A stretch of 64,000 nt of DNA. Source: Candidatus Omnitrophota bacterium (lineage in GTDB: Bacteria > Omnitrophota > Gorgyraeia > Gygaellales > Profunditerraquicolaceae). The notes beneath the pieces were generated by a model. That model had not been told where the DNA came from, did no database searches, and saw only the letters and a program-made list of their open reading frames with translations. This document shows positions 14,613 through 42,600 of this stretch, one piece after another. The position numbers were made by a program, and so were the translations under genes. The stretch covers positions 515,244 through 579,243 of the forward strand of contig JBAZKC010000001.1 in the NCBI GenBank assembly GCA_041651035.1, given 5' to 3'. Positions within the stretch are counted from its first letter, which is position 1. Every line of letters begins with the position of its first letter.

Positions 14613-14617
14613 AGTAT

Positions 14618-16099: not shown

Positions 16100-16100
16100 A

Positions 16101-17457: not shown

Positions 17458-17535
17458 GGCCCCATCGTCTAGCCTGGTCTAGGACGTCAGGTTCTCAGCC
17501 TGTAAACACCGGTTCAAATCCGGTTGGGGCTACCA
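17458..17535 (+). tRNA. tRNA-Glu (anticodon CTC), CCA encoded
   Basis: Architecture close to E. coli tRNA-Glu (…TCGTCTAG…GGAC…). Anticodon loop TTCTCAG. T-arm ACCGG-TTCAAAT-CCGGT. Acceptor GGCCCCA/TGGGGCT with a G1-U72 wobble and a U27-U43 mismatch. Confidence 0.65.
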
Positions 17536-23287: not shown

Positions 23288-24190
23288 ATGCAAAAGCAGC
23301 GCATAATTCTATTAGCCGGCGTGGGTTTGGCTTTGATAGTGGTAGTCCTTATCAAAGTTTACCTTGACCAGCAAAAGCAGGTCGCAAGTGAAGAGGCGCG
23401 CAGAGAAGCGGCGAGATTGCGGGCATCGTCGGTAGCGGTGCTTATAGCCAAAGATAATATACCCAAGGGGACGCTGGTCAAACAGGAATTATTAGAGACA
23501 AAGGTAGTGCCTTCCCAGGAGCTTATGCCGCAGGCAGCCACTTCTTTAGACAGGATCTCCGGCATGGTTACTATGGTAGTAATACCTAAGGGCCAGCAGA
23601 TTACTTTAAATACGCTGAGTTTCCCCCGGCAGGCAGGCGGTTTAGCGGAGGTGACTCCGGTTGGCAAGCGCGCGGTTACTATTAACGCGGACAATATCGC
23701 CAGCCTCGCGGGAATGATCAAGCCGGGAGATTATGTGGATATGATCGCCATGATCCCTGTATCCGTGCAAATCTCTGAAGGGAAACAGGCGACCCAGTTA
23801 GCCTCAGTGCCATTATTTCAGAACGTACTTGTTTTAGCCGTGGGCCAGGATATAGGTACAATGGCTCAGGCGGGAGCGGGAGGCAGGTACAATAAAGGAG
23901 AAGGGGTCCAGCAGCAACGGCAAGAAATTTCTTCTCTTATTACCATCGCCCTTAATCCCCAGGAAGCAAGCCTTATTTCATTTGTTCAGGAACAAGGTAA
24001 ATTACGCTTAGCTTTGCGTTCGCCTGCGGATTCTCAAACCCAGCAACTAAAGCCGATAGGATGGGAAGCCCTCTTCCAGTATTTGATGCCCGCGGATACA
24101 GCCAAGCAGCCGAAAGAAGAGATTAAGCCGGTCGGATATGTAGAGATATACCGCGGCCTTAAGAAAGACAAGGTTTCTTATCCAAAATAA
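23288..24190 (+). CDS. cpaB: Flp pilus assembly protein CpaB/RcpC
   Basis: N-terminal TM anchor followed by a SAF/CpaB-like domain. Gene order sits upstream of the secretin. Confidence 0.7.
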   Translation: MQKQRIILLAGVGLALIVVVLIKVYLDQQKQVASEEARREAARLRASSVAVLIAKDNIPKGTLVKQELLETKVVPSQELMPQAATSLDRISGMVTMVVIPKGQQITLNTLSFPRQAGGLAEVTPVGKRAVTINADNIASLAGMIKPGDYVDMIAMIPVSVQISEGKQATQLASVPLFQNVLVLAVGQDIGTMAQAGAGGRYNKGEGVQQQRQEISSLITIALNPQEASLISFVQEQGKLRLALRSPADSQTQQLKPIGWEALFQYLMPADTAKQPKEEIKPVGYVEIYRGLKKDKVSYPK

Positions 24191-24200
24191 AGGAGCAGTA

Positions 24201-25802
24201 ATGAAAAAAGCCTTATCAATTGGTCTCTTACTTATATTTAATTTTATGAGCCTTCCTTTGGCAGGCTATGCTTTGGATGAGAGCGGAGGAGAAATCAAGT
24301 TAGTCGTCGGAGAAGTTACGATAATGCCGGTCAATAATCCTACGCGTATTGTCATAGGCAATCCTGATATAGCAGATGTTTCCGATGTTGCCAAGAATGA
24401 AATGACCATTGTACCCAAAGCCCCGGGCACGACTAATATGGTATTATGGGATAACTTTGGTGAACAGTCTTATGAGGTCAGGGTTATCGCTGAGAATATG
24501 GACGCGGTTAAGCGCCGCATTGATATATTAATAGGAAGGCTTAATCTACCGCAGGTCTATACCCAGATAGCGGAAGACGAAGGCAAGGTCCTTCTTTTAG
24601 GAAGAGTTAAGGCTCCGGCGGACAGAGAAAGGATCGCTACTGCCCTGGGTCCGTTAAAAGATAAAACAACAGACCTCATTGTAGTAAAAGAAGAAGAGGC
24701 AGTGGTAAATATTGACGTGCAGGTTTTAGAGTTAAGTAAAGATGCTACTAGCACTCTGGGATTTACCTGGCCGGGAGCCATAACATTAACTGATGTCTCC
24801 GCGGCCACGACTACAGCGACAACCGGGCTAGAGAAAGTTTTCCGTGTTTCCCAATTTACGCGTACAGCCTTTAATGTTACCTTAGATGCCTTGGTGCAGG
24901 AAGGCAAGGTCAATATTCTTTCCCGTCCGCGGCTTTCCTGTCAAAGCGGCAAAGAGGCGGAATTATTGGTGGGCGGAGAGAAGCCGATTTTTACCACGAC
25001 AGTCGCTGCTACTACCGGCGCATCGGGCACATCCATAGAATATAAGGAATACGGTATTAAGCTTAAGATAAAACCCACCGTAACCGACGATAAGAAAGTA
25101 AAGCTGGCATTAAACGTAGAAGTAAGCGAAGTAGGCACTGTGGATACTATCGGGACTACTTCTACCGGTGAAGTCACGGCTAAGGCCTATCCTTTGACTA
25201 AACGCAACGCTTCCACTGAGCTTCTCCTTAATGACGGGCAGACTATGGCCATAGGCGGGCTGATGAAGCAGAAGACCGAAGAAGCCGTCCGTAAGACTGC
25301 CTGGGCGGGAGATCTGCCTATAGTGGGGGCGCTCTTCAGGCAAAAGACTACCAAGGTGGGCGGAGGCATAGGCGAAAGAGGCAATACAGAATTATTTATC
25401 ACTCTTACCCCTACCGTATCCAGTGAAGAGAAGAAGGCGCCGGAAGTTAAAAAAGAGATCACGCCAAAAATAAGTTCTTCCGGAGCCAGCGATATTAGTG
25501 GAAATACTTTAGGCCCTAAGGCCTTATACGCCACAATTATACAGAAACGCATATTAGAGAATATGATTTATCCTTCTTTAGCCAAAGAAGCTGGTTTCCA
25601 GGGGGAATTAAAGTTGAGCCTGCTCTTGTCTTATCGGGGCGAACTTTTAGAGGCAAGGCTTAAAGAATCCTCGGGGTATAAGATATTGGATGACCAGGCT
25701 GTCAATGTGGCTAAGGGGATTGCTACGTATCCTCCTTTCCCTTCCTCTATAGAGCAAAAGGAACTCTGGATAGATGTTCCCATAGCCTATCAGTTGGATT
25801 AA
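24201..25802 (+). CDS. cpaC: Tad secretin CpaC/RcpA with a C-terminal TonB_C-like domain
   Basis: Secretin domain (…LSRPRLSCQSGKEAELLVGGEKP…GGLMKQKTEE…IPIVGALFR…). Last 100 aa (YPSLAKEAGFQGELKLSLLL…SSGYKILDDQAVNVAKGIATYPPFP) match the TonB C-terminal domain pattern. Confidence 0.7.
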   Translation: MKKALSIGLLLIFNFMSLPLAGYALDESGGEIKLVVGEVTIMPVNNPTRIVIGNPDIADVSDVAKNEMTIVPKAPGTTNMVLWDNFGEQSYEVRVIAENMDAVKRRIDILIGRLNLPQVYTQIAEDEGKVLLLGRVKAPADRERIATALGPLKDKTTDLIVVKEEEAVVNIDVQVLELSKDATSTLGFTWPGAITLTDVSAATTTATTGLEKVFRVSQFTRTAFNVTLDALVQEGKVNILSRPRLSCQSGKEAELLVGGEKPIFTTTVAATTGASGTSIEYKEYGIKLKIKPTVTDDKKVKLALNVEVSEVGTVDTIGTTSTGEVTAKAYPLTKRNASTELLLNDGQTMAIGGLMKQKTEEAVRKTAWAGDLPIVGALFRQKTTKVGGGIGERGNTELFITLTPTVSSEEKKAPEVKKEITPKISSSGASDISGNTLGPKALYATIIQKRILENMIYPSLAKEAGFQGELKLSLLLSYRGELLEARLKESSGYKILDDQAVNVAKGIATYPPFPSSIEQKELWIDVPIAYQLD

Positions 25803-25808
25803 AAAACA

Positions 25809-27980
25809 ATGGCCAAGAGAATAGTTATATTCAGTACAAAGGGCGGAGTAGGTAAAACCTTAATCGCGGCTAATTTAGGCGTAAGCCTCGCCAAAGAACA
25901 AGGCCGGAGAGTTTGTTTGGTAGATCTAGACCTGCAAGGCTTAGGCGATATGTCCAGGATGCTGTATCTTGACCCGCAAAAGGCAATGGTAGATCTAATC
26001 CCCGTTATCAGGAAGCAGCCTCAAGTTGCAGCCTCGGGTTTTAATAAAAAAGACTTTTTGACTTCAAGCACGCTGGGCCTGGATTTCTTGCCCGGAGTTT
26101 TAAGGCCGCAGCAATCATCCCATCTTGATCCGTCAGCGGTTAAAGAAGTATTCAGCCTACTAGATAAAGATTATGATTATATAATTATAGACGCGGGCAA
26201 TAATTTCAGTGAAGTCTTTATTGCCACATTGAATCAAGCGAATCTGCTTCTTTTGGTAGCTACCCCCGACATACTCTCCATACATCAAACCAAATGGGCC
26301 TTAGAGACCCTGCAGCTCTTGCATTTACCTTTATCTATGGTGAAGATTGTTCTTAACAGGGCAGAATCCACCTCGAGCATTAGCTGGCAAGAGGTAATGG
26401 TTAGCGTACCCTGTGATATTATCGCTCAGATACCCTCTGAAGGAAAAGCAGCGGGCATGGCGGTAAATCAGGGTATCCCCGTGGTTGTGGACAGCCCCAA
26501 GGCAAAGATCTCTCAAGCCATAAGCAAGCTTGCCAAGCAATTGGCCAGTGAACAGAATTTATTTACCGAGTTAAAAGAGATAGACCAGTTACACGTTAGA
26601 GAAGTTACAGTAGAAAAGGCGGGGGAATTATGGGAAAAGGAAGGTTTGGTTGAGCCTTTGGTTGAAGATGCTCTTAGCGAAGAAGCAGACGAGATACTGG
26701 TATTGAAGCGCCGCATAAATAAACGGCTTATAGATGAACTGAATATTAAGAGGCTGGATTTAAAGTTGTTCAGCGATACTAAGAAGACCAAGGAGTTAAG
26801 GACAAAGGCTGAAACAAAAGTGGCTAATCTTATGACTGAAGAAGCAGGCAGCCTTATCCCTTCTCCTGATGTGCGCAAGAAATTAATAAAGGAGATCCTG
26901 GATGAGGCTTTAGCCTTAGGCCCTTTAGAAGACCTGCTGGCGGATACCAGCATAACCGATATTATGGTTAATAATAAAGATGAGATATATATTGAGCGCA
27001 ACGGTAAGATCGAGCTCACGGATAAGAAATTTATTTCCAATGAACAGGTCAGGACTATCATTGAGCGTATAATTGCCCCTATCGGCAGGCGTATTGATGA
27101 ATCTGTGCCTATGGTAGATGCCAGGCTTCTCGATGGTTCCCGCGTAAATGCCTTAATTCCGCCTCTTTCATTGACTGGCCCGACACTGACCATAAGGAAA
27201 TTCCGGAAAGAAAGGTTCAAGATCGAGGAACTGGTTAGGCTTAGGGCCGTGAATTCGAACATGGCGGAATTTTTAAGGGCCTGCGTATTATCCAGGAAGA
27301 ATATGATCATATCCGGAGGTACGGGCTCAGGCAAGACCACCGTGCTTAATATCCTTTCGGAGTTCATACCGGATAACGAGCGTATTATTACTATTGAAGA
27401 TGCGGCGGAATTAAAACTTCATCAGGAACACTGGATAAGATTAGAGTCCAGGGCGCCCAACATTGAAGGCAAGGGCGCGGTTACCGTAAGGGATTTATTC
27501 AGGAATACGTTGAGAATGAGGCCGGATAGGATTATTATCGGCGAGTGCCGTGGCATTGAAAGCCTGGATATGCTTCAGGCAATGAATACAGGCCACGATG
27601 GTTCAATGACCACAGTGCATGCCAATTCTACCCACGACGTCTTAATGAGGCTTGATTCTATGATCCTAATGTCGGGGGTTGAGCTTCCCATAAGGGCGAT
27701 CCGCGAGATGATCGCCTCAGCCATAGATTTGGTCGTCCATACCGCCCGTCTTTCAGATGGGAGCCGGAAAGTCATCCAGGTAACAGAATTAGTCGGGATG
27801 AAGAATGATATAGACGTTAACCTTCAAGATATCTTTGTTTTTAAGCAGACAGGTATAGATAACAATGGTGCTGTTATGGGTGATTTCCAGGCTACCGGCT
27901 ACGTTCCTTCCTTTATTAAAGAGATAAAGATGAAAGGTATATCTTTATCTGATAATGTCTTTACTCCCCCCGTTTCCTAG
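25809..27980 (+). CDS. cpaF: Fused CpaE-like ParA/MinD ATPase plus CpaF/TadA secretion ATPase
   Basis: N-terminus has FSTKGGVGKT (deviant Walker A). C-terminal half has ISGGTGSGKTT plus VirB11/TadA-type motifs (…RPDRIIIGECRG…). Confidence 0.75.
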   Translation: MAKRIVIFSTKGGVGKTLIAANLGVSLAKEQGRRVCLVDLDLQGLGDMSRMLYLDPQKAMVDLIPVIRKQPQVAASGFNKKDFLTSSTLGLDFLPGVLRPQQSSHLDPSAVKEVFSLLDKDYDYIIIDAGNNFSEVFIATLNQANLLLLVATPDILSIHQTKWALETLQLLHLPLSMVKIVLNRAESTSSISWQEVMVSVPCDIIAQIPSEGKAAGMAVNQGIPVVVDSPKAKISQAISKLAKQLASEQNLFTELKEIDQLHVREVTVEKAGELWEKEGLVEPLVEDALSEEADEILVLKRRINKRLIDELNIKRLDLKLFSDTKKTKELRTKAETKVANLMTEEAGSLIPSPDVRKKLIKEILDEALALGPLEDLLADTSITDIMVNNKDEIYIERNGKIELTDKKFISNEQVRTIIERIIAPIGRRIDESVPMVDARLLDGSRVNALIPPLSLTGPTLTIRKFRKERFKIEELVRLRAVNSNMAEFLRACVLSRKNMIISGGTGSGKTTVLNILSEFIPDNERIITIEDAAELKLHQEHWIRLESRAPNIEGKGAVTVRDLFRNTLRMRPDRIIIGECRGIESLDMLQAMNTGHDGSMTTVHANSTHDVLMRLDSMILMSGVELPIRAIREMIASAIDLVVHTARLSDGSRKVIQVTELVGMKNDIDVNLQDIFVFKQTGIDNNGAVMGDFQATGYVPSFIKEIKMKGISLSDNVFTPPVS

Positions 27981-28476: not shown

Positions 28477-28959
28477 CTAAGTAGAATCAGGAAAATCTAT
28501 TAGTCCTGTTTTGTTACCAAAAACCCTGTCTTTATAACTGCTCCAGGGATAATCTGTAAGTATAGAGACTAAACCCGCCCTTAGCGGATTCATTTCAATA
28601 TAATAAACACAATCAATAAAATAATTGTCTTTTTGGATAACCATACTTTTGAATCTTCCTTGCCAGAGACGGCCTGGTTTTTTGTATTTGTTGTTGAACC
28701 AAACAGTGTACGTCTGGGTTAAGCCTTGCATAAATAATGCCAGATCATTAGGGTTTTTCGGCTCTAAAATGAGATGAATATGGTTTGGCATAAGGCAATA
28801 ACCAAATATTCTAAAGGCATATTTCTTCTTAAAGTGCTTTAATAGTTGCAGGTATTTCTCGAAATCCGCATTTTCTAGGAATATTCTTTGTTTTTGATTA
28901 CCCCTATTGACAACATGATAGCATGCATTATTTAAGATAATTCTTGCTCCTCTAGGCAT
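28477..28959 (-). CDS. REP-associated tyrosine transposase (RAYT; IS200/IS605 TnpA-like, Y1/HUH)
   Basis: HUH motif MPNHIHLIL. YHVVNRG near the N-terminus. C-terminal catalytic Tyr region (YIEMNPLRAGL). Flanked by REP clusters B and C in inverted arrangement. Confidence 0.7.
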   Translation of the reverse strand: MPRGARIILNNACYHVVNRGNQKQRIFLENADFEKYLQLLKHFKKKYAFRIFGYCLMPNHIHLILEPKNPNDLALFMQGLTQTYTVWFNNKYKKPGRLWQGRFKSMVIQKDNYFIDCVYYIEMNPLRAGLVSILTDYPWSSYKDRVFGNKTGLIDFPDST

Positions 28960-29172: not shown

Positions 29173-31128
29173 TTGGGAGTTGTCTATAAATTAAAAGATG
29201 AAATAAGAGATTTTATCGTAGAGAAAAAGAGATCAAACCAGGTCTTAAGTTGCCGGCGTATGTCTCTTTTAATTGAGGAGAAATTTAAGTCAAGGATATC
29301 TAAATCCAGCATTAACGCCATTATGAAAGAGGCCGGCTTGAGTATGCCGGTAGGAAGAAGGTTAAAAAAGAGAAGGCGCGGGCAGCAGGTGCCGCCTAAT
29401 TTGATAGAATTCAAGCCTATAGATGTGCCTTCTGAGATCAAAGAAGCGATCTCGCCTCTTAAGCCTATTACAGTTCAATCAAATATAACCCCTCCATCTG
29501 AACCAGTTATACCTCTGCCTGTTGTACCCTCGGCACCAGAACCTATTGTGGAGCAGCCTGTTGCGACTCCGGAGCCAGAACATATTGCGGAGCAACCAGT
29601 TACACCATCTCAGCCCGAGCCTGCTATAGAACAACCAGCAGTTATTCCTCCGCCTGAGCCGATTATAACCCCGCCAGCTGAGGTCCCGCCACCGCAACCT
29701 ATTGTGGAACAACCAGTTGTGGAGCAGCCTGTTATAGAACAACCGGTTCCTGCGGCACCTACGCCGGTTGCCGCGCCAACACCAATAGAAGAGCCAGTTG
29801 TCGCGCATATTGAGCCTCCGTCGGAGACGGAATGCACAGGGGCGATATTACTTAAGGCCACAGATTATTTAATAAAAGGTAGTTTCAATATCGCAGAGGC
29901 AGTCAAAGGCCGGTTAAGTAAACAAGAAGGAGATCTTTTGACTAAAACAGAAAGCCTGATTTATCTATCTTTATTTGAAAAGGATCTTCCCGGACTTTGG
30001 GCGTTTATAGACAGGCAGTTATCCGCAGAAGGCATAACAACTTATCTCAATGAACTGCAATCAGTTAGCGCATTAAACTCAAATATTCTTCGTGCTATTT
30101 CCAGCGCCTTACAAGAAGTCCGTTGTATCAAAGCTAATTGTTTGGGCGGGGATATTTTTTATTTAGATGGCCAGATGCACACTGTTTGGTCAACCCAGTA
30201 TATACCGTATGATTTCTCCGCAACTATTTACGACACAAAGAGTTGCATAAATAGATATTTCTTCGGAAGCGATCCTTTTGTTTTGTTTGTGGCGCCTGGC
30301 TATGATATCCCTACCAGGGAATTCTTTAATTTTATCTTAAGCCTAGCCTCCAAAGAGAAAACAATCGCCAACTTAACTCTTTATAATAATAAACTTGAGG
30401 AATTAGAGGTTGTCCATTTGGGCCAGCCAAAGAAGCGTTATTTTATTTGCGGGTTCTACCCCTGGCAATATGTGGAGTACCGCAAGGTCTATAAAATAGG
30501 GGAATTCAGGCCGTTCTACGCGGAGGCATTGCATAAAGATATTTATGGCGCGGACATAGAGATTGAGCTATCACAAACAGTTGGTATACAACATGTTATG
30601 TTAAGGGGGTGTGCTTTAAAAATGACTCCGGATGAGAAGACGCGCCTGGTAGTATTAAGCAATTTCGCCTATGGAGAGATCAAACCGGAAGATCTGGCAA
30701 ATACTTACCTGAACCACTGGCCAAACCTGGAAGAATGTTTTCAGGATTTCAGCCGAAAAATAGAGCTCTTTACTTACACCGCTGCCTCACGGCGTTTTTT
30801 CTCTCCGGATTTCCTTAATTTTGACAGCGGATCCAGCCAGGATATCAAGACGCTCTTTAATAATTACCTGAAAGCGCTTGATCTGTATATCAGATGGCAC
30901 TTCCTGCCGCTGGGTTATGAAGACAGCGATTTCTCGACGGTAAATGAGCGTTTTTACAGCCTAAAAGTCAGGCTTAAAAGAGAAAAAGGATATTGCCTGG
31001 CAATTTTTCAGCCTCCCTCAGGTTATGCTTATCTAAAGGAACTTGAATACGCCTGCCGCCGCGTAAACGAAAAAGAGATAATTGATCTCCACGGCAAAAA
31101 ATTACAGTTCAGCGTTGCTTCCCAGTAA
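29173..31128 (+). CDS. Hypothetical protein: N-terminal HTH-like region, proline-rich tandem-repeat linker (PEPIVEQPV-type), and a 430-aa C-terminal domain with faint DDE-transposase (IS4/IS1634-like Y..[RH]W..E…K) resemblance
   Basis: TTG start with AGGAGG 6 nt upstream. Residues 90-215 are a Pro/Glu/Gln-rich imperfect repeat. YLNHWPNLEECFQDFSRK resembles the Y-x2-R-W-x-I-E-x2-F-x3-K signature of IS4-superfamily transposases. Confidence 0.45.
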   Translation: MGVVYKLKDEIRDFIVEKKRSNQVLSCRRMSLLIEEKFKSRISKSSINAIMKEAGLSMPVGRRLKKRRRGQQVPPNLIEFKPIDVPSEIKEAISPLKPITVQSNITPPSEPVIPLPVVPSAPEPIVEQPVATPEPEHIAEQPVTPSQPEPAIEQPAVIPPPEPIITPPAEVPPPQPIVEQPVVEQPVIEQPVPAAPTPVAAPTPIEEPVVAHIEPPSETECTGAILLKATDYLIKGSFNIAEAVKGRLSKQEGDLLTKTESLIYLSLFEKDLPGLWAFIDRQLSAEGITTYLNELQSVSALNSNILRAISSALQEVRCIKANCLGGDIFYLDGQMHTVWSTQYIPYDFSATIYDTKSCINRYFFGSDPFVLFVAPGYDIPTREFFNFILSLASKEKTIANLTLYNNKLEELEVVHLGQPKKRYFICGFYPWQYVEYRKVYKIGEFRPFYAEALHKDIYGADIEIELSQTVGIQHVMLRGCALKMTPDEKTRLVVLSNFAYGEIKPEDLANTYLNHWPNLEECFQDFSRKIELFTYTAASRRFFSPDFLNFDSGSSQDIKTLFNNYLKALDLYIRWHFLPLGYEDSDFSTVNERFYSLKVRLKREKGYCLAIFQPPSGYAYLKELEYACRRVNEKEIIDLHGKKLQFSVASQ

Positions 31129-31168
31129 AATATCCAGGAAACCGCTTTCCCAACAGCCAAAAATATCC

Positions 31169-31197
31169 TTGACACTTTTTTTAACAGATGGTATATT
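31169..31197 (+). promoter_or_regulatory. sigma70-type promoter TTGACA-N17-TATATT driving the flp gene array
   Basis: TTGACA at 31169-74, TATATT at 31192-97. About 200-nt leader before the first flp ATG. Confidence 0.5.
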
Positions 31198-31220
31198 TTA
31201 AGTGGCAAATTATAATTATG

Positions 31221-31384
31221 GCAGCGAAAAAGGGGAGGGCAATTCCACTAGGAGGAAGTGGATGCGCAAAGCCACGGGACCATGCTCGCTGAAAGAGCCT
31301 TTTTATATTTATTTATTTTTGGGTAGAAACGGTGATAATATCCGGGTTACCGAAAGCCGGGAAATTTTGGTAACCCGGTTTTGT
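31221..31384 (+). ncRNA. Candidate c-di-GMP-I (GEMM-like) riboswitch with intrinsic-terminator expression platform
   Basis: Ordered blocks AGGGCAAttCC, hairpin CCACt-AGGAGGAA-GTGG, GCGCAAAGCCACGGG, … CCGGGTTACCGAAAG resemble remembered GEMM-I conserved blocks (GGCAAACC / ACGCAAAGC…CGGG / GGGUUACCGA). The 3' block is the 5' arm of a perfect 10-bp stem (CCGGGTTACC at 31342-51 with GGTAACCCGG at 31369-78) followed by TTTTGT. Confidence 0.35.
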
Positions 31385-31401
31385 ATTATTAGGGGTTAAT
31401 A

Positions 31402-31590
31402 ATGGGTTTTAGAAAGTTCTTAAAAATTGTTTCCACGACGAAGGCGCAGTCTTCTTTAGAGTATTTTATTTTATTCGCTGTGATCGGCGGCTTGACTCTT
31501 ATAACCCTAAGCTCTTTTTTGCCTCAAGTAAAGCAATCCGGCGAAGACCTGTTCACTAACGCGGCGAACAGGATCATTAATCCTAAATGA
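31402..31590 (+). CDS. flp: Flp-family pilin (short form, 62 aa)
   Basis: …TKAQSSLEYFILFAVIGGLTLITL… Flp motif (x-x-x-E-Y plus a hydrophobic helix). Confidence 0.65.
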   Translation: MGFRKFLKIVSTTKAQSSLEYFILFAVIGGLTLITLSSFLPQVKQSGEDLFTNAANRIINPK

Positions 31591-31591
31591 A

Positions 31592-31741
31592 ATGAAAAAA
31601 GCGCAGAGTATTTTAGAATACGCGATGATCATCTCGGTAGTGGTAGCGGCTTTAATGGCGATGAATATTTATGTTCAGCGTTCAGTACAGTCGAATCTCA
31701 AGACGATAGAAGACAGGGTTAATGCTAAACCCGCGAATTAA
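31592..31741 (+). CDS. flp: Flp-family pilin (49 aa; below the ORF-track size cutoff)
   Basis: Manual translation: MKKAQSILEYAMIISVVVAALMAMNIYVQRSVQSNLKTIEDRVNAKPAN. Confidence 0.55.
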   Translation: MKKAQSILEYAMIISVVVAALMAMNIYVQRSVQSNLKTIEDRVNAKPAN

Positions 31742-31755
31742 AGGAGGATGGTAAA

Positions 31756-31920
31756 ATGAGGAGTAATAATGGTCAAAGTGTATTGGAATATGTCATTATT
31801 CTAACCGCTGTTATCGCTGTAATTATCCTCGCGGCGCAGAATATTATCAGGCCCGCGGTAAACCAGATAATGACCAACGCGGCAAGTTCTATGAATAGAG
31901 CGGCAAACCAATTGCCTTAA
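31756..31920 (+). CDS. flp: Flp-family pilin (54 aa; below the ORF-track size cutoff)
   Basis: Manual translation: MRSNNGQSVLEYVIILTAVIAVIILAAQNIIRPAVNQIMTNAASSMNRAANQLP. AAGGAGG RBS upstream. Confidence 0.6.
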   Translation: MRSNNGQSVLEYVIILTAVIAVIILAAQNIIRPAVNQIMTNAASSMNRAANQLP

Positions 31921-31937
31921 CTTATAAGGAGGGAAAG

Positions 31938-32261
31938 ATGCTGCATATCCTAAGGAACAAGAAGGCCCAGACTACCGCAGAATACGCCATACTTATAGGT
32001 TTAGTAGTAGCGGCTTTAATCGCTATGCAGACTTATGTAAAAAGAGGCCTGCAGGGCAGGATGAAAGACGCTACCGATACCTTTGCCACAGAGACTACTA
32101 ACCTCGGAGCTACGACTCAATATGAGCCGTATTATTTAAATCAGGCCAGCACCGGCACGAGCAGCTCTCAGCAAAGCGAAGGCATAACCGAAGGCGGCGG
32201 AGTGAGTAGGACTCAAAATGCCACATCCACCAGGACGGGCACGCAGTCATACGGTTGGTAA
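31938..32261 (+). CDS. flp: Flp-family pilin, long form with Ser/Thr-rich C-terminal tail (107 aa)
   Basis: KKAQTTAEYAILIGLVVAALIAMQTYVKRGLQG… followed by a T/S/G/Q-rich 60-aa tail. AGGAGGG RBS upstream. Confidence 0.65.
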   Translation: MLHILRNKKAQTTAEYAILIGLVVAALIAMQTYVKRGLQGRMKDATDTFATETTNLGATTQYEPYYLNQASTGTSSSQQSEGITEGGGVSRTQNATSTRTGTQSYGW

Positions 32262-32291
32262 AAAGAGCTTTTATTTAAGCAGGAGGAATAA

Positions 32292-32630
32292 ATGAAATCA
32301 AGGGGTTTTAAGAAAGGGCAGGGCACATTAGAATACGCGGTTATCGTGGTGGTGGTTATAGGCGCGCTTATCGCGATGCAGTGGTATATTAAAGGAGGCT
32401 ATCAGGGAAAGCTCAGGCAGGCTTCCGACGATATGGGTGAACAGTTCTCGCCGACGCGCACGACCACTAATTATGTTACAAGCACATCATCTTCTACGAA
32501 TGAGCAGGTTTCAGGGGGTTCGTTAGGCAGCAACGTCATGCCGGTAAGTTCCACTAATTTTACCCAAACCCAAAGCAGGGCGGGGAGCGAAAGTGTGGAG
32601 AGCTTAAGCACGACAAGCGACCAGAGATAG
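32292..32630 (+). CDS. flp: Flp-family pilin, long form with Ser/Thr-rich tail (112 aa)
   Basis: KKGQGTLEYAVIVVVVIGALIAMQWYIKGGYQG… followed by an S/T-rich tail. Confidence 0.65.
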   Translation: MKSRGFKKGQGTLEYAVIVVVVIGALIAMQWYIKGGYQGKLRQASDDMGEQFSPTRTTTNYVTSTSSSTNEQVSGGSLGSNVMPVSSTNFTQTQSRAGSESVESLSTTSDQR

Positions 32631-32657
32631 GCCGTTTTAATGTAGGATGTTTTAAAT

Positions 32658-32981
32658 ATGTTTAAACAATTTACTAAGGCGCAGAGCCTTGTAGAATATT
32701 CTATTATCCTGGCGGTGGTACTGGCTGCTTTAATGGGGATGCAGTTATATATGAAACGCGGCCTGCAGGCAGGAGTAAAGGTTGCCGCCGATCAATTAGG
32801 TTCCCAGGAGAGCGCGGATGTATTAATAAACTTTAAAAGGCAGGCAAATACAGTCAGTAATACTACGGCTCTAAAATCCGGCGTAGTTAGGACACAGGTT
32901 TCTGAAGGAGGGAGTCAAACCAAGGCTACAGATATTACTGATACTGTAGTTAGCTCTTCAGTATCTACGATGCAGGAATAA
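32658..32981 (+). CDS. flp: Flp-family pilin, long form with Ser/Thr-rich tail (107 aa)
   Basis: TKAQSLVEYSIILAVVLAALMGMQLYMKRGLQAG… followed by an S/T-rich tail. Confidence 0.65.
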   Translation: MFKQFTKAQSLVEYSIILAVVLAALMGMQLYMKRGLQAGVKVAADQLGSQESADVLINFKRQANTVSNTTALKSGVVRTQVSEGGSQTKATDITDTVVSSSVSTMQE

Positions 32982-32984
32982 AGG

Positions 32985-33326
32985 ATGGAGGAGATGAAAA
33001 ATAAGCTGATAAGGGCGCAATTCAGTTTGGAATACGCGGTAGTTATCGTCTGTATAATTATAGCTCTTATAGCTATGCAGGCTTATATGAAACGCGGCAT
33101 GCAAGGAAAGATGCGCCAGACCGCCGACAGTATCGGCGAACAGTATGACCCGGCAAGCACCACTTCGGACAGCACAATGGCCTTTAATTCAGTTACTAAT
33201 ACTTTAACGACTACTATAGATAACAGCGGCTCAACTACTACCAATACCGTTTCTAATTTTGAAGAGACACAGACCCGCACAGGTACTGAAACGGTCGGGC
33301 CGCTGGAGAACGCTACTTTAGAATAA
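32985..33326 (+). CDS. flp: Flp-family pilin, long form with Ser/Thr-rich tail (113 aa)
   Basis: IRAQFSLEYAVVIVCIIIALIAMQAYMKRGMQG… followed by a T/S/N-rich tail. Confidence 0.65.
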   Translation: MEEMKNKLIRAQFSLEYAVVIVCIIIALIAMQAYMKRGMQGKMRQTADSIGEQYDPASTTSDSTMAFNSVTNTLTTTIDNSGSTTTNTVSNFEETQTRTGTETVGPLENATLE

Positions 33327-33337
33327 AAGGATGAACT

Positions 33338-34300
33338 ATGAACGCGCGCAAATATACCAGGCTATCAGGGCAGGCAATATTGGAATTGGCTATCTTTGGC
33401 GCTATTATCATCATGCTTTTAGGTATACTACTTAATTACGGTTTAAGGTATAGCTTGGAACAGAAGGTGATGATGAACACTTTTAGAGAGGCATTACAAG
33501 ACACTGCTAACTCTGTTACCGGTGGGCAAGGCAGTATCACCGTGATTCAGGATAAACATGTCCCCAATCCGGCTGACCCTTTTGGCGTGGGCACGGTAAC
33601 TCCTTTTGCTTCTAGCTCCAGCGTAACCCGTAGTTACAAATTACATGAGACCCCGGATACCTACGCGGAATTGCCTCGCGCCACCTTTCAAATACAGGAT
33701 AAAAAGTTCTCTTATAAGACCGCAGGGTTCAGGGATGTAGATAGTGCGTCAGGATTGAGTAAATATGAGGAGGTATACGGCGGCAGTAATGTCTGGGCAG
33801 TTGGAAGCGGGTTAAGGATACTTGATTCCTGCGAGGGTGAGATAATGAGCTATGATAACTGCAAGAGGCAATGCCGGATGATCACAGATACGGATTTCTG
33901 CGTCAAGGAATGCAACAGGGGCAAACTGGTGGGTAGCAGCACGGATTGCACTGCAGTCTGCGCCCAGGAAATAGAAACACCTTGGTATTGTAACTCGCTC
34001 GACAGTGTCTTTAATTTTGCCATTGCGACGAATAAGCCTAAGGCAATGGGGGTGCAGTCTGAGTATAGCAAACAGACTGTAGTAAGCAATATCCTAAGAA
34101 AACAGGAATCCGCAGGTAAAATAGCTACTACTGATACTATAGACTGGTCTGATACCACCAAGAGAATGATACTTTATAACGAGCGAGTAGTAAGTCCAAG
34201 CGGGGCGATGCAGCCTGGTATTAATATTCAGTCAACTCCGGTTGAGACTACAGTCGGTGAAACAACCACGCAGGAATGTCAGGACGGAGTTTGCCAATAA
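33338..34300 (+). CDS. TadE/TadG-like pseudopilin with cysteine-rich C-terminal domain
   Basis: N-terminal …LSGQAILELAIFGAIIIMLLGILLNYGL (TadE-like motif). C-terminal region has at least 10 Cys (CEGEIMSYDNCKRQCRMITDTDFCVKECNRG…C…C…C). Confidence 0.55.
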   Translation: MNARKYTRLSGQAILELAIFGAIIIMLLGILLNYGLRYSLEQKVMMNTFREALQDTANSVTGGQGSITVIQDKHVPNPADPFGVGTVTPFASSSSVTRSYKLHETPDTYAELPRATFQIQDKKFSYKTAGFRDVDSASGLSKYEEVYGGSNVWAVGSGLRILDSCEGEIMSYDNCKRQCRMITDTDFCVKECNRGKLVGSSTDCTAVCAQEIETPWYCNSLDSVFNFAIATNKPKAMGVQSEYSKQTVVSNILRKQESAGKIATTDTIDWSDTTKRMILYNERVVSPSGAMQPGINIQSTPVETTVGETTTQECQDGVCQ

Positions 34301-37449: not shown

Positions 37450-38307
37450 ATGTTGGTAATATTGCAGTTGCTCATCCTTATTTTATTATTTGCTTCCGTA
37501 TATCTTATCGCCCAGCCGATAATCCCTTTTGTAACCGATAAACTCCAGCGCGCGCAGGCAAAAAAAGTATCGCAGGCAGAGAAGCAGCTTGACGAGATGT
37601 TCCTGCTGGTTAAGCGCGAGAAATTATTCTTGTATTATACCTTAAGCCCGGTTGTGCTGGCCGGTTTAGCCATGCTATTGTTCCATCAGGTAGTTATTGC
37701 CGTAATCGCGGGAGCCGTTGGTTTTCTCCTGCCGGCATTCGTGATCAAACAGATGGAAATACAGCGTAAAGAAAAATTTCTCAATCAGCTCGTTGATGGG
37801 CTAATGATCGTTTCGTCTTCGCTAAAAGGAGGGCTTTCTTTTATCCAGGCAATAGAAGTCCTGGTGGAAGAGATGCCGCCTCCGATATCCCAGGAGTTTG
37901 GGTTGATCTTAAGAGAGAACAAAATAGGGTTAACTTTAGAGGATAGCCTTAAGCGTTTAAATGACAGGTTGAAGATGAATGAATTAGGCCTGGTTATCAA
38001 TTCTATCCTTGTAGCAAGAGAGACAGGAGGGGATTTAACCAAGGTTTTTAGTAAGCTTTGTTCTACTTTCCGGGATAACCATAAACTAAAGGAGAATATA
38101 CGCACCTTGACCTTGCAGGGCAGATTACAGGGCATAATTATGTCTGTGCTGCCTATTGTATTTGTCTGGTGGGTCCTGACCTTTAACCGCCAGCATTTCG
38201 ATATCATGTTAAACACAGAGCAAGGAAGGATGCTTTTATTGGTAGCTGTGGTGTTACAGATAGTAGGTGTTTTGCTTATCCGCAAGTTCAGTATGGTCAG
38301 GATATAG
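37450..38307 (+). CDS. tadB: Flp pilus assembly protein TadB (T2SS-F domain inner-membrane platform)
   Basis: T2SSF-like core (…QEFGLILRENKIGLTLEDSLKRLNDRL…GGDLTKVFSKL…) plus TM helices. Confidence 0.7.
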   Translation: MLVILQLLILILLFASVYLIAQPIIPFVTDKLQRAQAKKVSQAEKQLDEMFLLVKREKLFLYYTLSPVVLAGLAMLLFHQVVIAVIAGAVGFLLPAFVIKQMEIQRKEKFLNQLVDGLMIVSSSLKGGLSFIQAIEVLVEEMPPPISQEFGLILRENKIGLTLEDSLKRLNDRLKMNELGLVINSILVARETGGDLTKVFSKLCSTFRDNHKLKENIRTLTLQGRLQGIIMSVLPIVFVWWVLTFNRQHFDIMLNTEQGRMLLLVAVVLQIVGVLLIRKFSMVRI

Positions 38308-38337
38308 ATCATAATATAAATACGAAAGAGAGGGGAT

Positions 38338-39192
38338 ATGCTTCTGGTAATTTATATATTCTTAGCTGCGGCAGCCGCGCTTGTCATAATTGGTATATCA
38401 GGCTCTATCCAGCCTGGAGCGAGGCGCGCCCCGCTTCCCCATCCGCAGGCGAACAGGCCGCGAGTAAGCTTCTCTTTCAGCCAGAAATTATTAGAGAAAC
38501 TCAAATTGGATGTAAAAATAAAGAATAAATTAGCCGCTGCCCATGTGATGAACATTACAGCCGGCCAGTTCTTTGATATCAGGCTTGCCCTGCTGGTTAT
38601 CGCGGGCAGTATGAGTTTTCTCCTTCTAAAGAAGATCGACCCTCCGGTAATGCTTATATTCCTTGCCTTGGCATATCTTATTCCCGATCTGTGGCTGAAA
38701 AGGAAGATAAGCCAGCGTAAATACGAGATCGCCCGGGTCCTGCCCGAGACAGTAGATCTGCTGGGTTTATGCGTAGAGGCAGGCCTGGATTTTACTACGG
38801 CAGTAAAATGGGTCATTGAAAAGAAGGTCTCTGCTAACCCTATGGTTGAAGAATTAGCCCTGGTATTGGATGAGATAAAATGGGGCAAGCCGCGCAGCCA
38901 GGCACTAAAGGATATGGCTAAGAGATTGAATGTCCCGGAAGTAAGTTCCTTTGTCCAGGCCCTGGTGCAGGCAGAGCGCATGGGTACGCCTGTAGGAGAG
39001 GCATTTGGCATCATATCTGAAGATACCCGTTTACAGCGTTTTCGCAGGGGAGAGCGTTATGCCCTGCAAGCTCCCATAAAGATCCTTCTGCCTTTGATTT
39101 TCTGTATATTGCCGGTAATCGGTATTATCATTGGCGGCCCTATACTCTTACAGTTTACTCAAGGCGGTTTATTCACCGGATTTGCTAAATAG
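38338..39192 (+). CDS. tadC: Flp pilus assembly protein TadC (T2SS-F domain)
   Basis: T2SSF-like core (…ALKDMAKRLNVPEVSSFVQALVQAERMGTPVGEAF…) plus TM helices. Confidence 0.7.
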   Translation: MLLVIYIFLAAAAALVIIGISGSIQPGARRAPLPHPQANRPRVSFSFSQKLLEKLKLDVKIKNKLAAAHVMNITAGQFFDIRLALLVIAGSMSFLLLKKIDPPVMLIFLALAYLIPDLWLKRKISQRKYEIARVLPETVDLLGLCVEAGLDFTTAVKWVIEKKVSANPMVEELALVLDEIKWGKPRSQALKDMAKRLNVPEVSSFVQALVQAERMGTPVGEAFGIISEDTRLQRFRRGERYALQAPIKILLPLIFCILPVIGIIIGGPILLQFTQGGLFTGFAK

Positions 39193-39193
39193 C

Positions 39194-39361
39194 AATGTCC
39201 AATCTAGTCTTAAATCAAGCTAGTAATGTCCAATCTATAGGGACTGTCCCCAGCCTTAGTTATGATGCACCATTCTTAATCCATTAAATGTCCAATCTAA
39301 TAGATACAGGGACTGTCCCCGAAATGTAGCTTCTGGTGGGCTGTTCTTAGGGGACTGTCCC
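39194..39361. repeat. Array of short repeats: 3x AATGTCCAATCTA interleaved with 3x GGGACTGTCCC(C) quasi-palindromes
   Basis: AATGTCCAATCTA at 39194-206, 39225-37 and 39287-99. GGGACTGTCCCC at 39240-51 and 39309-20, and GGGGACTGTCCC at 39350-61. Confidence 0.7.
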
Positions 39362-39474
39362 TAGATTTTGAGCTATTTTTGCCCCAAATCAACAAGATTA
39401 TTGGCCTTGTTAACCCATTACTAATGCAAAGGATTGCGGAAAAGAAAGCGCTCTCTTTAGAAGCAAAAACACAC

Positions 39475-39504
39475 TTGACATGGACGCTATCTATATGTTA
39501 TACT
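39475..39504 (+). promoter_or_regulatory. sigma70-type promoter TTGACA-N17/18-(T)TATACT for the giant gene
   Basis: TTGACA at 39475-80. Spacer contains GGACGCTAT, as at 29088-104. TATACT at 39499-504. About 190-nt leader before ATG 39697. Confidence 0.5.
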
Positions 39505-39642
39505 TGCGATGTAAACAGAAAGATTTGAAAGGCAATTTTTATTTCAGCTCTTTATAAGAAGTTTCACAAAGGACTTAATATTTACGTATGAAAAGCGTTA
39601 ATCTGAGCGCTATGATGAATAGAAAAAGTCTTCGGGGTAAGG

Positions 39643-39666
39643 GGAAAACTGTGCTTTTTCCTTTTT
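39643..39666 (+). terminator. Weak terminator/attenuator-like hairpin in the giant-gene leader
   Basis: GGAAAA-ctgtgct-TTTTCC followed by TTTTTAT; only 2 GC pairs, so it is weak. Confidence 0.2.
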
Positions 39667-39696
39667 ATATAGGTATTACCGTAACAGGTGAATAAA

Positions 39697-42600
39697 ATGG
39701 ATAAAGGCGGATACAAGAAAACCGAACCAGAGAATAAGCCACTAGGAAAAAAGGGACTGTCCCCGCAGGGGACTGTCCCTGGAACGTTCAAGTCTAGTTT
39801 CAAGGCTTGGATCCGCGTAGTGGCTTTTTTAGTGGTCGCGGTTTTCTTGCCTGAACAAGTAGCCCAGGCAGTGGAATATGACTGGCGCGTTATCTGGCAA
39901 AAGCCGGCTGTCTATACTTCCTCTTATGCCAATACCAAAGATATACACAATGCCGACATACCGCTTGCCATCAGGGACATCCTAAAAGATATATCAGGCA
40001 AGCCCGTAAATGCTATAAAGATCTCGCCCACCGTAACCGTAGAATTAAGCAAGCCGTTAAATATCTCCAAACAGAGAATTGAAGAAATATACAACTGGTT
40101 AAGAGGCAAGACCTGCGGCTCAAAGGCATTATATGACCTATTAAGCTACAAGGGTTTTAAGGTTGCTGAGCAGGATATCGCGGTCATGGCCTTGACCATA
40201 GATATATTAAACGATGTAGTAAAGGCTGAAGGCAACCCCAAGGTTATTAAGACGTCTTTATACGCCTTGTCTAAGGCATCAGAATCCTTCGGTTTAAAGC
40301 TTTACCCCGTAAAAATGGATTTATCACAGGGACTATCCCCAAAGGGGACTGTCCCTTTCATTGCTCACCTGAATTCCGACCACTATATCCTGGTAACCCG
40401 CGTAACCGATGAAAAAGTTTATTTTGTAGAGGAGCACAAAGAGGAGTTCCTGCCTAAAGAAAAGTTCCTGAAAGATTTCTCCGGGTATTGTCTGATAAGC
40501 CGCCAGCCTTCAGCTATTGGTCTGGAATCAGTTAACGATGCCGAAGCTAAGAAGATACTCGGCGCGCGTTCTTACAAAGGGGAATATGCCGATTTATCTT
40601 CCTTATTTGAAAAGCCGTCAACCAGTGATTTATTGATGAGCTTAGGCATGACTGTAGCTACGGTCGCCATAGGCGGGATTGGTGGAGGATTCTCCAACGC
40701 GATTGTTAGTTTCGGGACAGCCTGTTTTACCAGCCAGGTAAGCGGAGCGCTTACTACTATGGCGCAAAAAGAACTTGGCTGGAGTCCACAAGCTTCAGCG
40801 CTTTTAGGCATGGCTGTAGGCAGCGGGTTGAATATGGGCCTTAGCGCAAGTATGTCCTCTACTATATTGGGCTCTGGGAAAACCGGCACGTTTACCTCGT
40901 TTAAATATGCCCCGGCTGGTGTCCAGGCTTTTGCGGCAAATCATCCTTTTGTGGCCGGTTTTGCCGCAGGCACGCTTATGGGTGCCGCTCAAGGCGGTTT
41001 ACAGATTGTTTTAAATGATGCTTTTAGCGGCATGGATTCTTCACTTAGATATGGTTTATCCGGATTATTGAGTTCTACCGCGGTAACCTTTGGCTCTAAT
41101 GCTTTAATGGGTGCGCTTCCTGGGGGGAGTGGCGGCTGGGATGCCATAAAAGACACTTGGAATGCTAACAATAAACAGCTCCCCAAATATATGCTTACTC
41201 AAGGCATTGCTTTAGGAGTTGAGTATTTAGCTACAGAGACAGGTTTTATGAAACCCGAATATAGCCGTATCTTAGGCCAGGGTTTGGGTTCTTTAATTAC
41301 AGGATTTGCTTTCAAATCACCCGGAGGAATCGAACAACCCGGTAGATGGTTTACCATAGAGGATTCTCCTTTAGTGACTACGCTGGGCAATGCGGTTATA
41401 GATGGTTTAATTAGTGGGGGTATATCTGTTGGGTTAACTAAACTATCCAATGCCACCGAAGGGAATGAGTTTTTAGATGCGGCAACACCTTATATGGCTA
41501 TGTTGGTTTCAAACGTGCTTTATGCCGGGTATCATAGCTGGATAGCGAAAGATTTGTATTCTGCTCCTAGCCTTAGCGGAAATGGCACTATTTATGGAAC
41601 TGAAAAGCAATTGAGGGAACTTGGTATAACCAACCTGGATTTAACGCAGCATGCTACTTTTCTGGATCTAGCGTATGGGCAATCACAAAATATAGCGCGC
41701 GAGCACCTGACTTTTGGATACAGTTCTCCTTTTACACCCGCTGCATGGTTACAAGGCCAGCAGGAATATACCACTTTTAACTTCGCTTTATTCAATAACA
41801 AGATGTGGGATTTTACCGGCTTGACCTATTATGTTGACGCAGCCAAGCAGGCACAGGATACCTTAAGGAAGAACGGCGGGAATCCTGATGATTGGAGGAA
41901 ACAACAGATCCTGCCCGATTTTATGCAGTCCCTGGTTTATTATAACCGTTCATTTGCCAATGCCCAGGCAACCAATACCTTCGCCGATTTATTCAGAGAT
42001 GTCTATGCCAATGATCTAGGTGGCAATAAATTAGGAGCGTATCAAGCGGGGTGGGTACTAAAAGACGGGGAATTGACGAAAGTTAGTTTTAATAACGCGT
42101 TAAAGACATCGTACGGCAATAATGTGTTCGGCACTTATAATTCTCTTGCAGATGTATATGGGAAACAATTATCTTGGAATCAATCTTTTTATTCTAACAT
42201 CGGACTTACAAATGAATGGTGGCTGGGAATGTCATCAAGCTATATATACCCGGTTTTCGGGGGCAGGCTCGGTAATGATATCTTCCCTATGGTAGATGGG
42301 TCACCAATAAAGGAAAATACCACAGGTAGCTTAACCACTACTCTAGACATTTATAAAAATAAAGGCGGTATCTCTACAGTAAACATAGATACTGACACTC
42401 GGAAAACAATATTAGAAGTGGCGGGAAAATATAAGCAGGATATGGGATTAGAGGAGATGCCTTTAATCCAACGCTACAAGAAAGATAATGGTGGCGAAAT
42501 CATTTTATCTGAAGTCTTAATAGGGCCTTTAGATGGGAAGATGCCCCTTTCTACGAGAGATTGGGATTTAGTGCAAACGCTTGGTGGCCAGCCTACGCTT

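Follow-up and report, generated by a model that had tools for sequence, protein, structure and literature searches.

A predicted c-di-GMP-I riboswitch in front of the Flp pilin operon of an uncultured Omnitrophota bacterium

A stretch of 64,000 nucleotides (nt) from a Candidatus Omnitrophota bacterium (GenBank assembly GCA_041651035.1, contig JBAZKC010000001.1, positions 515,244 to 579,243 of the forward strand) contains seven small Flp-type pilin-like open reading frames (ORFs) preceded by a leader of about 197 nt. The whole stretch is called the window and is numbered from its first letter. An earlier inspection of the letters alone, the sequence-only reading, had proposed that the leader contains a riboswitch for c-di-GMP (cyclic diguanosine monophosphate) and a terminator. 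The analysis supports a c-di-GMP-I (GEMM-I) aptamer at 31220-31358 (+), on homology and on every core structural criterion, and this aptamer probably forms part of a working c-di-GMP ON switch in front of the flp pilin operon. Binding of the ligand, the sign and strength of the regulation and the full function of this diverged copy are what we infer. The parts of the leader, assigned by homology with the Rfam consensus and with the Vibrio cholerae Vc2 aptamer in the cmscan alignment, are as follows.

31169-31197 (+), sigma-70-type promoter: -35 TTGACA at 31169-31174, extended -10 TG at 31189-31190, -10 TATATT at 31192-31197
about 31204-31401 (+), flp leader (5' untranslated region, ~197 nt)
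31220-31226 (+), closing helix P1, 5' strand GGCAGCG; orthologue consensus GGCAGCGAAAA...ACCGAAAGCC
31227-31238 (+), junction J1/2 (AAAAAGGGGAGG), ending in G31238, the equivalent of Vc2 G20
31239-31267 (+), GEMM 'P1' hairpin (P2 in crystal-structure nomenclature): base of 2 base pairs (bp), 3-nt internal loop, 6-bp stem
31250-31256 (+), terminal loop AGGAGGA, 7 nt, of the GEMM P1 hairpin
31268-31270 (+), invariant AAA linker, in which A31268 corresponds to Vc2 A47
31270-31348 (+), P2 hairpin: base helix 31270-31277 / 31342-31348, 7 bp, with bulged A31274
31278-31341 (+), P2 extension, 64 nt, with distal helix UCGCUG 31286-31291 / CGGUGA 31330-31335 containing two G.U pairs
31349 and 31350 (+), A and C, the equivalents of Vc2 A91 and C92
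31351-31358 (+), closing helix P1, 3' strand CGAAAGCC, invariant in the closest relatives
31342-31384 (+), intrinsic terminator: 14-bp stem 31342-31355 / 31365-31378, 9-nt loop, about -22 kcal/mol, U-tract UUUUGU at 31379-31384
31391-31395 (+), Shine-Dalgarno sequence AGGGG, followed by the ATG of the first flp gene at 31402

A default Rfam scan of the window found no riboswitch and just one transfer RNA gene (17458-17532, (+), 54.2 bits), the only gathering-level match. When cmscan was run in E-value mode, RF01051 (c-di-GMP-I) matched 31228-31354 over the full model, 1-87, with 28.4 bits (E = 8.9e-4 in a region of 351 nt, 0.16 in the whole 64-kb window). This was the best match after the transfer RNA and the sole riboswitch match. 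The family expected by the sequence-only reading was therefore found at full length but below the Rfam gathering cut-off, which is 35 bits for RF01051. RF01786 (c-di-GMP-II), the other family that it had considered, gave nothing in 31100-31450, where E values up to 10 were allowed, or in a scan of the whole window. The RF01051 score is low because of a 62-nt insertion at a point in P2 where the model expects 25 nt, a 7-nt terminal loop that is not of the GNRA type and a few substitutions, one of which is a G-to-U change in AGCCGGG. The modelled helices contain no non-canonical pairs in this alignment.

Related loci were retrieved using a homologue alignment of the TadG-like protein encoded at 33338-34300 as an anchor, which gave 79 metagenome and 27 genome loci, nearly all labelled Omnitrophota. 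A single-sequence search of genome contigs with the anchor protein gave no matches whereas the alignment-based search succeeded. Aptamers in these loci, referred to by L numbers, were located by a pattern search and then with a covariance model, R1. Of these loci, 47 reach far enough upstream, and 34 of the 47 carry a GEMM-I-like aptamer on the coding strand, 2-5 kb 5' of the anchor. After the aptamer there is always a hairpin with a U-run, then a Shine-Dalgarno sequence, then the first flp gene (...GQ[AS]xLEYF...). Eleven orthologous flp leaders pass the RF01051 gathering score, with 36.8-45.8 bits. A second covariance model, R2, was built from 13 orthologous leaders with the window sequence left out; five of its members (L012, L071, L001, L103 and L107) are copies passing the gathering score or near-identical relatives of those. 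Searched against the 64 kb, R2 scores 82.3 bits (E = 4.4e-22) at 31227-31357 and matches nowhere else. Given this match and the gathering-level orthologues, there is no doubt that the element in the window is homologous to the RF01051 members despite its sub-threshold score. In the orthologous leaders hardly a base of the promoter has changed, and the Shine-Dalgarno sequence is kept as AGGAG or GGGGG, followed by TTAATAATG. Locus L107 shares the synteny of the window, including an IS200 gene and a homologue of a 651-amino-acid protein, and its copy of the element is intact. In three high-GC relatives the first flp gene is preceded by tandem GEMM-I aptamers, each with its own terminator (L019 3191-3523, L035 1756-2176 and L048 3342-3641).

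Every sequence block named in the sequence-only reading is present, with coordinates within one base. AGGGCAATTCC lies at 31236-31246, GCGCAAAGCCACGGGACC at 31264-31281 and CCGGGTTACCGAAAG at 31342-31356, and the hairpin strands CCACT and AGTGG are at 31245-31249 and 31257-31261; the spacing between the core blocks, given as 65 nt, was measured as 60 nt. The consensus promoter that it placed at 31169-97 was also found, as TTGACA-17-TATATT with 11 of 12 consensus matches and an extended TG, and transcription probably starts at about 31204-31206. The proposed outer helix between CAGCGA and UCGCUG did not survive the comparison. Both hexamers exist, each one base away from where they had been placed (at 31222-31227 and 31286-31291), but their pairing is not kept in relatives such as L005 and L010, and each hexamer has a different conserved partner: CAGCG is part of the 5' strand of closing helix P1, which pairs with 31351-31358, and UCGCUG pairs with CGGUGA to make the distal P2 helix, of which it is the 5' strand. 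A pairing of GUGGC with GCCAC (31202-31206 with 31271-31275) that appears in the minimum free energy (MFE) fold is absent from the relatives and was taken as chance.

The GEMM P1 hairpin is formed by the pairs G31239-C31267 and C31240-G31266, an internal loop AAU/UGC and a 6-bp stem, 31244-31249 / 31257-31262. The published definition of GEMM P1 is a 2-bp and a 6-bp stem around a conserved 3-nt loop, followed by a linker that is 'virtually always AAA' (Weinberg 2007, PMC1950547). The base of P2 carries the conserved strands GCCACGG and CCGGGUU and is invariant in the relatives. In closing helix P1, GGC 31220-31222 pairs with GCC 31356-31358, and the pairs C31225-G31352 and G31226-C31351 lie beside the ligand pocket. 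The equivalents of the ligand-contacting nucleotides are all present, namely G31238 (G20), A31268 (A47) and C31350 (C92), whose roles are familiar from PDB 3IRW. In Vc2, G20 decides ligand specificity, A47 stacks between the two ligand guanines and C92 makes a Watson-Crick pair with one guanine (PMC7288161). Position 47 is A in 40 of 43 Omnitrophota aptamers and position 92 is C in 42 of the 43.

Covariation was examined in these 43 aptamers, in an alignment fitted to the model so that the counts lean towards structure. In this alignment, 91.5% of cells were paired compared to 74.5% in shuffles, 20 of the 27 pairs showed changes on both sides, and the covariation score was 0.388 against 0.13 for shuffles and <=0.067 with slid partners. 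All 8 stem pairs of GEMM P1 change on both sides. An independent MAFFT/RNAalifold alignment of ten leaders showed 2-4 double changes for each pair of the GEMM P1 hairpin, and the distal P2 helices also covary in the relatives. For closing helix P1 there is no covariation proof since its pairs are near-invariant, the CG/CG pairs being kept in 29-33 of the 43 aptamers. The sequence-only reading had staked its proposal on conserved structure in homologous leaders, and the helices of these leaders do covary. Its claim of a c-di-GMP-I aptamer is borne out by the full-length RF01051 match, the retained ligand-contact nucleotides, the covarying helices and the orthologues above the cut-off.

The terminator described in the sequence-only reading as a 10-bp stem and UUUUGU directly before the flp start was found. 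CCGGGTTACC lies at 31342-31351 and its complement GGTAACCCGG at 31369-31378, followed by TTTTGT at 31379-31384; the stem is in fact 14 bp long. A simple terminator scan missed this hairpin because its 9-nt loop exceeds the limit of that scan. The 5' arm consists of the 3' strand of P2, the A91/C92 equivalents and the first half of the 3' strand of closing helix P1. Since the terminator takes its 5' arm from the aptamer's own 3' strand, the two structures are mutually exclusive. Folding of the two alternatives, also suggested earlier, gave an MFE for the full leader of -55.3 kcal/mol, which is the terminator fold, versus -38.7 kcal/mol with the aptamer enforced. A thermodynamically favoured terminator fold is usual for ON switches under kinetic control.

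Without exception, the 42 orthologous aptamers lead into a hairpin and U-run whose 5' arm overlaps the 3' end of the aptamer. At least two unrelated terminator designs were found. The window, L001, L005, L014 and L071 have CCGGGUUACC.../...GGUAACCCGG, and L010, L012, L032, L084 and L103 have ACCGAAAGCC.../...UUCGGU. Given that the overlap persists despite this turnover of terminator sequence, the logic is conserved and not just the sequence. This competition, kept across terminator turnover, is the best evidence for the proposed mechanism, and it favours the c-di-GMP-dependent anti-termination put forward in the sequence-only reading.

The switch is predicted to operate as follows. Transcription would begin at the conserved promoter, 31169-31197. 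When c-di-GMP is present it would bind the nascent three-helix junction via G31238, A31268 and C31350 and would lock the P2 base helix and closing helix P1. CCGGGUUACCGAAA would then be held in the aptamer, no terminator stem could form, and the polymerase would read into the seven flp genes and probably on into the downstream tad genes. When c-di-GMP is absent the much more stable terminator would form and transcription would halt at 31379-31384. Since P2 and P1 stabilised by the ligand would block termination, c-di-GMP should turn the flp operon on, so that a high level of c-di-GMP would give pilin expression.

For this class of riboswitch, such a mechanism, an association with such genes and a terminator overlapping the aptamer are all textbook features. 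An arrangement in which the terminator overlaps P2 was reported for 78 of 322 GEMM RNAs, with ON logic predicted, and cpaA and pil genes are listed among the GEMM targets (Weinberg 2007, PMC1950547). The window element resembles c-di-GMP-I (RF01051) RNAs such as Vc2 in its 2-bp/3-nt/6-bp P1, AAA linker, P2 with a bulged A and closing helix, in the G20/A47/C92 equivalents, in its 5' untranslated position and in the competition of the terminator 5' arm with P2. It differs from them in its sub-gathering score, its 7-nt AGGAGGA loop, its 7 extra nt in J1/2 and its Omnitrophota host, and differs from the RF01051 model in that its P2 is ~40 nt longer and has no recognisable tetraloop receptor. The only class criteria from which it departs are the operational score cut-off and the GNRA loop, a feature that is not absolute. 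RF03167, the c-di-GMP-I-GGC variant, belongs to the same clan (CL00126) and also models the closing helix. However, the variant consensus is GCGAA (G47) while the window and its relatives have GCAAA (A47), and on this count they belong with ordinary c-di-GMP-I.

The closest functional analogue is Cdi-2-4 of Clostridioides difficile, a c-di-GMP-II riboswitch 5' of pilA1, where the ligand causes read-through into the major pilin and the downstream pilus genes (PMC6366702). There too a leader terminator forms without c-di-GMP and the output is a pilus. The aptamer of Cdi-2-4 has the class II fold (RF01786) and serves type IVa-like pili in a Firmicute, whereas the window has a Flp/Tad (type IVc) system in a bacterium of the PVC group and no class II match. 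No Omnitrophota riboswitch and no link to c-di-GMP was found in the searchable literature, where the Omnitrophota papers treat Tad pili and giant ORFs without taking up how these are regulated. What is new is the context, an Omnitrophota Tad pilus, together with a second riboswitch that precedes a giant ORF in the relatives.

Several observations weigh against a working switch in this lineage. The score of 28.4 bits lies under the curated Rfam cut-off of 35. The copy is the most diverged of its group, with the insertion in J1/2, a broken middle helix in P2 and a distal helix held by G.U pairs, while the version in the syntenic L107 is intact. The terminal loop departs from GNRA, and the tests applied gave no partner for its conserved GGAGG. 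The U-tract of the terminator is interrupted (UUUUGU). The window lineage has lost the second riboswitch of its relatives, a loss which could mean that control by c-di-GMP is being relaxed. Finally, the REC-GGDEF protein encoded at 13671-14612, 17 kb from the riboswitch, speaks for control by c-di-GMP and is a candidate source of the signal, but it is the only GGDEF protein of the window and its active-site motif is the unusual GGDDF and not GG(D/E)EF. The gene lies in an operon, 13671-17306 (-), whose other products are a FIST-domain protein (16101-17306) and a HisKA/HATPase histidine kinase (14618-16099), the REC-GGDEF protein itself being a response regulator.

These observations invite the explanation that the element is a relic, in which the aptamer core was inherited, damage to the periphery (extra nucleotides in J1/2, a break in the P2 middle helix and the lack of a GNRA-receptor clamp) abolished any useful response to the ligand, and the hairpin and U-tract act as a constitutive, leaky attenuator. 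Its Rfam score is the lowest of the group (28.4 against 36.8-45.8 bits in the orthologues), the R2 alignment flags non-canonical pairs in P2, and the intact L107 copy, the loss of the riboswitch before the giant ORF and the weakish U-tract all agree with decay. However, the core segments GGCAGCG, GGCAA, AUGCGCAAAGCCACGGGAC and CCGGGUUACCGAAAGCC are all identical to the consensus, and the GEMM P1 hairpin and the base of P2 are perfect. A dead aptamer in front of a terminator of -22 kcal/mol would silence an operon of seven pilins and selection should remove such a terminator, yet it is intact. The insertion consists of ~7 lineage-specific nt in J1/2 (31231-31237), corresponding to 7 gap columns in all five relatives of the alignment. 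In L103, ~40 nt were inserted independently at this point, so the site tolerates insertions. A relic is an unlikely explanation.

The atypical periphery is shared in part by the relatives. The AGGAGGA loop stands in place of the GNRA tetraloop, and GGAG(G) is kept in ~25 low-GC relatives above a stem that covaries freely. High-GC relatives have GNRA loops and short P2 hairpins at the same locus. The P2 extension of the relatives contains UUUUAU...AUUU...GGGUCA and a distal helix CUCGC/GCGAG; that of the window has a U-rich region and then GGGUA, its helix linking the base to the distal helix is disrupted, and the latter survives with its two G.U pairs. RNAalifold applied to the P2 extension alone (19 sequences) found no consensus beyond the base helix, the extension being too heterogeneous or the alignment too poor. 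No description of an architecture with a GGAGG loop and a long P2 was found in the literature.

Regulators of the CsrA type recognise GGA in hairpin loops. The GGAGG in the terminal loop of P1 might therefore also bind such a protein, or the anti-Shine-Dalgarno sequence of the ribosome, and give a second layer of control. The conservation of GGAG(G) in ~25 leaders over a freely covarying stem would suit this proposal, as would the replacement of a GNRA tetraloop, which often docks with a P2 receptor and is 'almost always' present on GEMM P1, and so is not an absolute feature (PMC1950547). Watson-Crick kissing between the loop and the P2 extension, which would have given the loop a partner within the RNA, was unsupported (mean z -0.17, RNAduplex against shuffled targets, 20 leaders). 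On the other hand, GGAGG co-occurs with the long, GGGUCA-bearing P2 extension, and a non-Watson-Crick tertiary contact within the RNA replacing the tetraloop-receptor fits equally well. The window offers neither a csrA gene nor any evidence of such a protein, and a second input through the loop is rather improbable.

The same fold could also serve another cyclic dinucleotide, for example 3'3'-cyclic GMP-AMP (cGAMP) as in the GEMM-Ib riboswitches of Geobacter. These have the GEMM-I fold and lie 5' of genes for extracellular functions, and some relatives occur in tandem. The exchange G20A lets a c-di-GMP-I aptamer bind cGAMP (PMC7288161), and position 20 does vary in the orthologous flp leaders. 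It is A in six (L098 1715-1850, L038 2682-2815, L004 2897-3031, L017 3776-3911, L100 1842-1949 and L101 2016-2123), C in one (L084 2726-2872) and U in one (L091 2400-2535). Some Omnitrophota may, judging by this position, gate their pilin expression with a different cyclic dinucleotide. However, the window has G20 (G31238), A47 and C92, the signature for c-di-GMP, and A20, the signature of the cGAMP-sensing GEMM-Ib, occurs in the six orthologues named. Another ligand is thus very unlikely for the window itself, where c-di-GMP remains the predicted one.

That the region instead encodes a small protein, 31202-31399 (65 amino acids) or 31262-31399 (45 amino acids, MRKATG...), is hardly credible: gene callers do place an ORF of 61 amino acids over the L107 aptamer too, and BLASTP of the window ORF against that of L107 gives 51% identity over 45 amino acids, but this similarity merely mirrors how well the nucleotides of the RNA cores are conserved, the cores lie 76-86 nt apart (0, 1 or 2 modulo 3), the orthologous ORFs stop after 10-57 amino acids, the AUG is CUG in L071 and L098, and the substitutions in the stems are compensatory. 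A coding role for either ORF was rejected as the frame between the cores is not preserved; the sequence-only reading had rightly preferred a structured leader to the ORF 31202..31399, whose frame, length and AUG are all unconserved in the relatives.

The surroundings of the leader are a Tad/Flp pilus locus. The genes of the locus are given below with their positions in the window.

23288-24190, RcpC/CpaB gene
24201-25802, secretin gene
25809-27980, TadZ-TadA fusion ATPase gene
28477-28959 (-), IS200-type (IS200/Y1) transposase gene
29173-31128 (+), gene for a 651-amino-acid protein with a weak, sub-threshold N-terminal HTH_33 match and a proline-rich repeat region
31402-33326 (+), seven small Flp-type pilin-like ORFs, all carrying a (G/A)Q-x-x-x-EY motif of the processing type
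31402-31590 (+), first pilin-like ORF
31592-31741 (+), second pilin-like ORF
31756-31920 (+), third pilin-like ORF
31938-32261 (+), fourth pilin-like ORF, with weak matches to Flp_Fap and a Class III signal
32292-32630 (+), fifth pilin-like ORF
32658-32981 (+), sixth pilin-like ORF
32985-33326 (+), seventh pilin-like ORF
33338-34300 (+), TadG-like gene
37450-39192 (+), two T2SSF genes of the TadB/TadC type, with T2SSF matches

The IS200/Y1 gene (28477-28959, (-)) and the gene for the 651-amino-acid protein (29173-31128, (+)) sit between tadZ/A and the riboswitch, and both are syntenic in L107 (533-997 and 1241-2848).

Further downstream a giant ORF starts at 39685 (+) and runs off the window, beyond 64000. 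It encodes more than 8,105 amino acids, with a Peptidase_C39 match at amino acids 186-269, and its N-terminus, MDKGGYKKTEP..., is orthologous to the starts of the relatives' proteins (...FKSSFKxWIRIVAFxVVAVFLPEQVAQAVEYDWR). Giant ORFs are a known trait of Omnitrophota (PMC10066038). Of the 34 related loci whose sequence reaches far enough downstream, 17 have a second, canonical short c-di-GMP-I aptamer with a terminator, here called class B, before the giant ORF. In the eight loci scanned with Rfam, class-B aptamers scored 57.8-66.6 bits, RF03167 was the best of the clan in six of them, and A47 was present in all eight. In contrast to the flp leaders, position 20 is G in 14 of 15 aptamers before the giant ORF. 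The eight class-B aptamers are located as follows.

L002 11037-11113, class-B aptamer
L010 12190-12273, class-B aptamer
L027 12326-12410, class-B aptamer
L095 10131-10214, class-B aptamer
L005 12696-12772, class-B aptamer
L014 11693-11779, class-B aptamer
L032 10578-10662, class-B aptamer
L084 12133-12260, class-B aptamer

A class-B aptamer is absent from the corresponding region of the window, 39200-39690, as judged with R1 with its filters off and with Rfam in E-value mode. This spot is taken by a promoter-like TTGACA...TATACT at ~39475-39503, and only a remnant of the 3' side of the terminator and its U-tract is left. Between the class-B terminator and the ATG of the giant ORF there is a conserved leader of ~150 nt (window 39560-39690, L010 12324-12508, L014 11831-12015, L084 12281-12465 and 13 more loci). 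It ends in GGGGUAAGGGGRAAACU..GCUUUUYCCUUUUUAUAUAGGUAA and is kept in the window. Only a weak 7-bp hairpin is supported in this leader, mostly by G.U pairs and one-sided changes, and the leader has no Rfam match. The palindrome GGGACTGTCCC occurs six times near the start of the giant ORF, with three copies in the spacer (39240-39250, 39309-39319 and 39351-39361) and three within the ORF (39753-39763, 39769-39779 and 40345-40355). L084 carries the complement form of the palindrome, GGGACAGTCCC, as two insertions in the P2 extension of its flp riboswitch, at ~2790-2825. The palindrome may be a small element of the REP (repetitive extragenic palindromic) type or a mobile palindromic element.

The form with a GGAGG loop and a long P2 may, as a tentative suggestion in which our confidence is low, be a distinct structural subclass of GEMM-I confined to low-GC Omnitrophota, in which the GNRA-receptor clamp is replaced by another contact, either tertiary or with a protein. 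Together with the second aptamer it would define a regulon controlled by a cyclic dinucleotide (c-di-GMP, or cGAMP in the A20 lineages) that switches on a presumed apparatus for host attachment or predation, the Tad pilus and the giant surface protein.

Default Rfam annotation misses the riboswitch at this locus, and gene callers put a spurious small ORF in its place, in L107 as well. The conserved GGAGG loop and long P2 amount to a natural experiment in which a well-studied aptamer has had its tetraloop-receptor clamp replaced. Uncultured and ultra-small, Omnitrophota bacteria are thought to attach to or prey on other cells. The predicted riboswitch ties their Tad/Flp pilus to c-di-GMP signalling at the RNA level and, in the relatives, ties the neighbouring giant ORF to the same signal. 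The prediction that c-di-GMP would switch the attachment genes on is testable in vitro with synthetic RNA, with no need for a culture of the organism.

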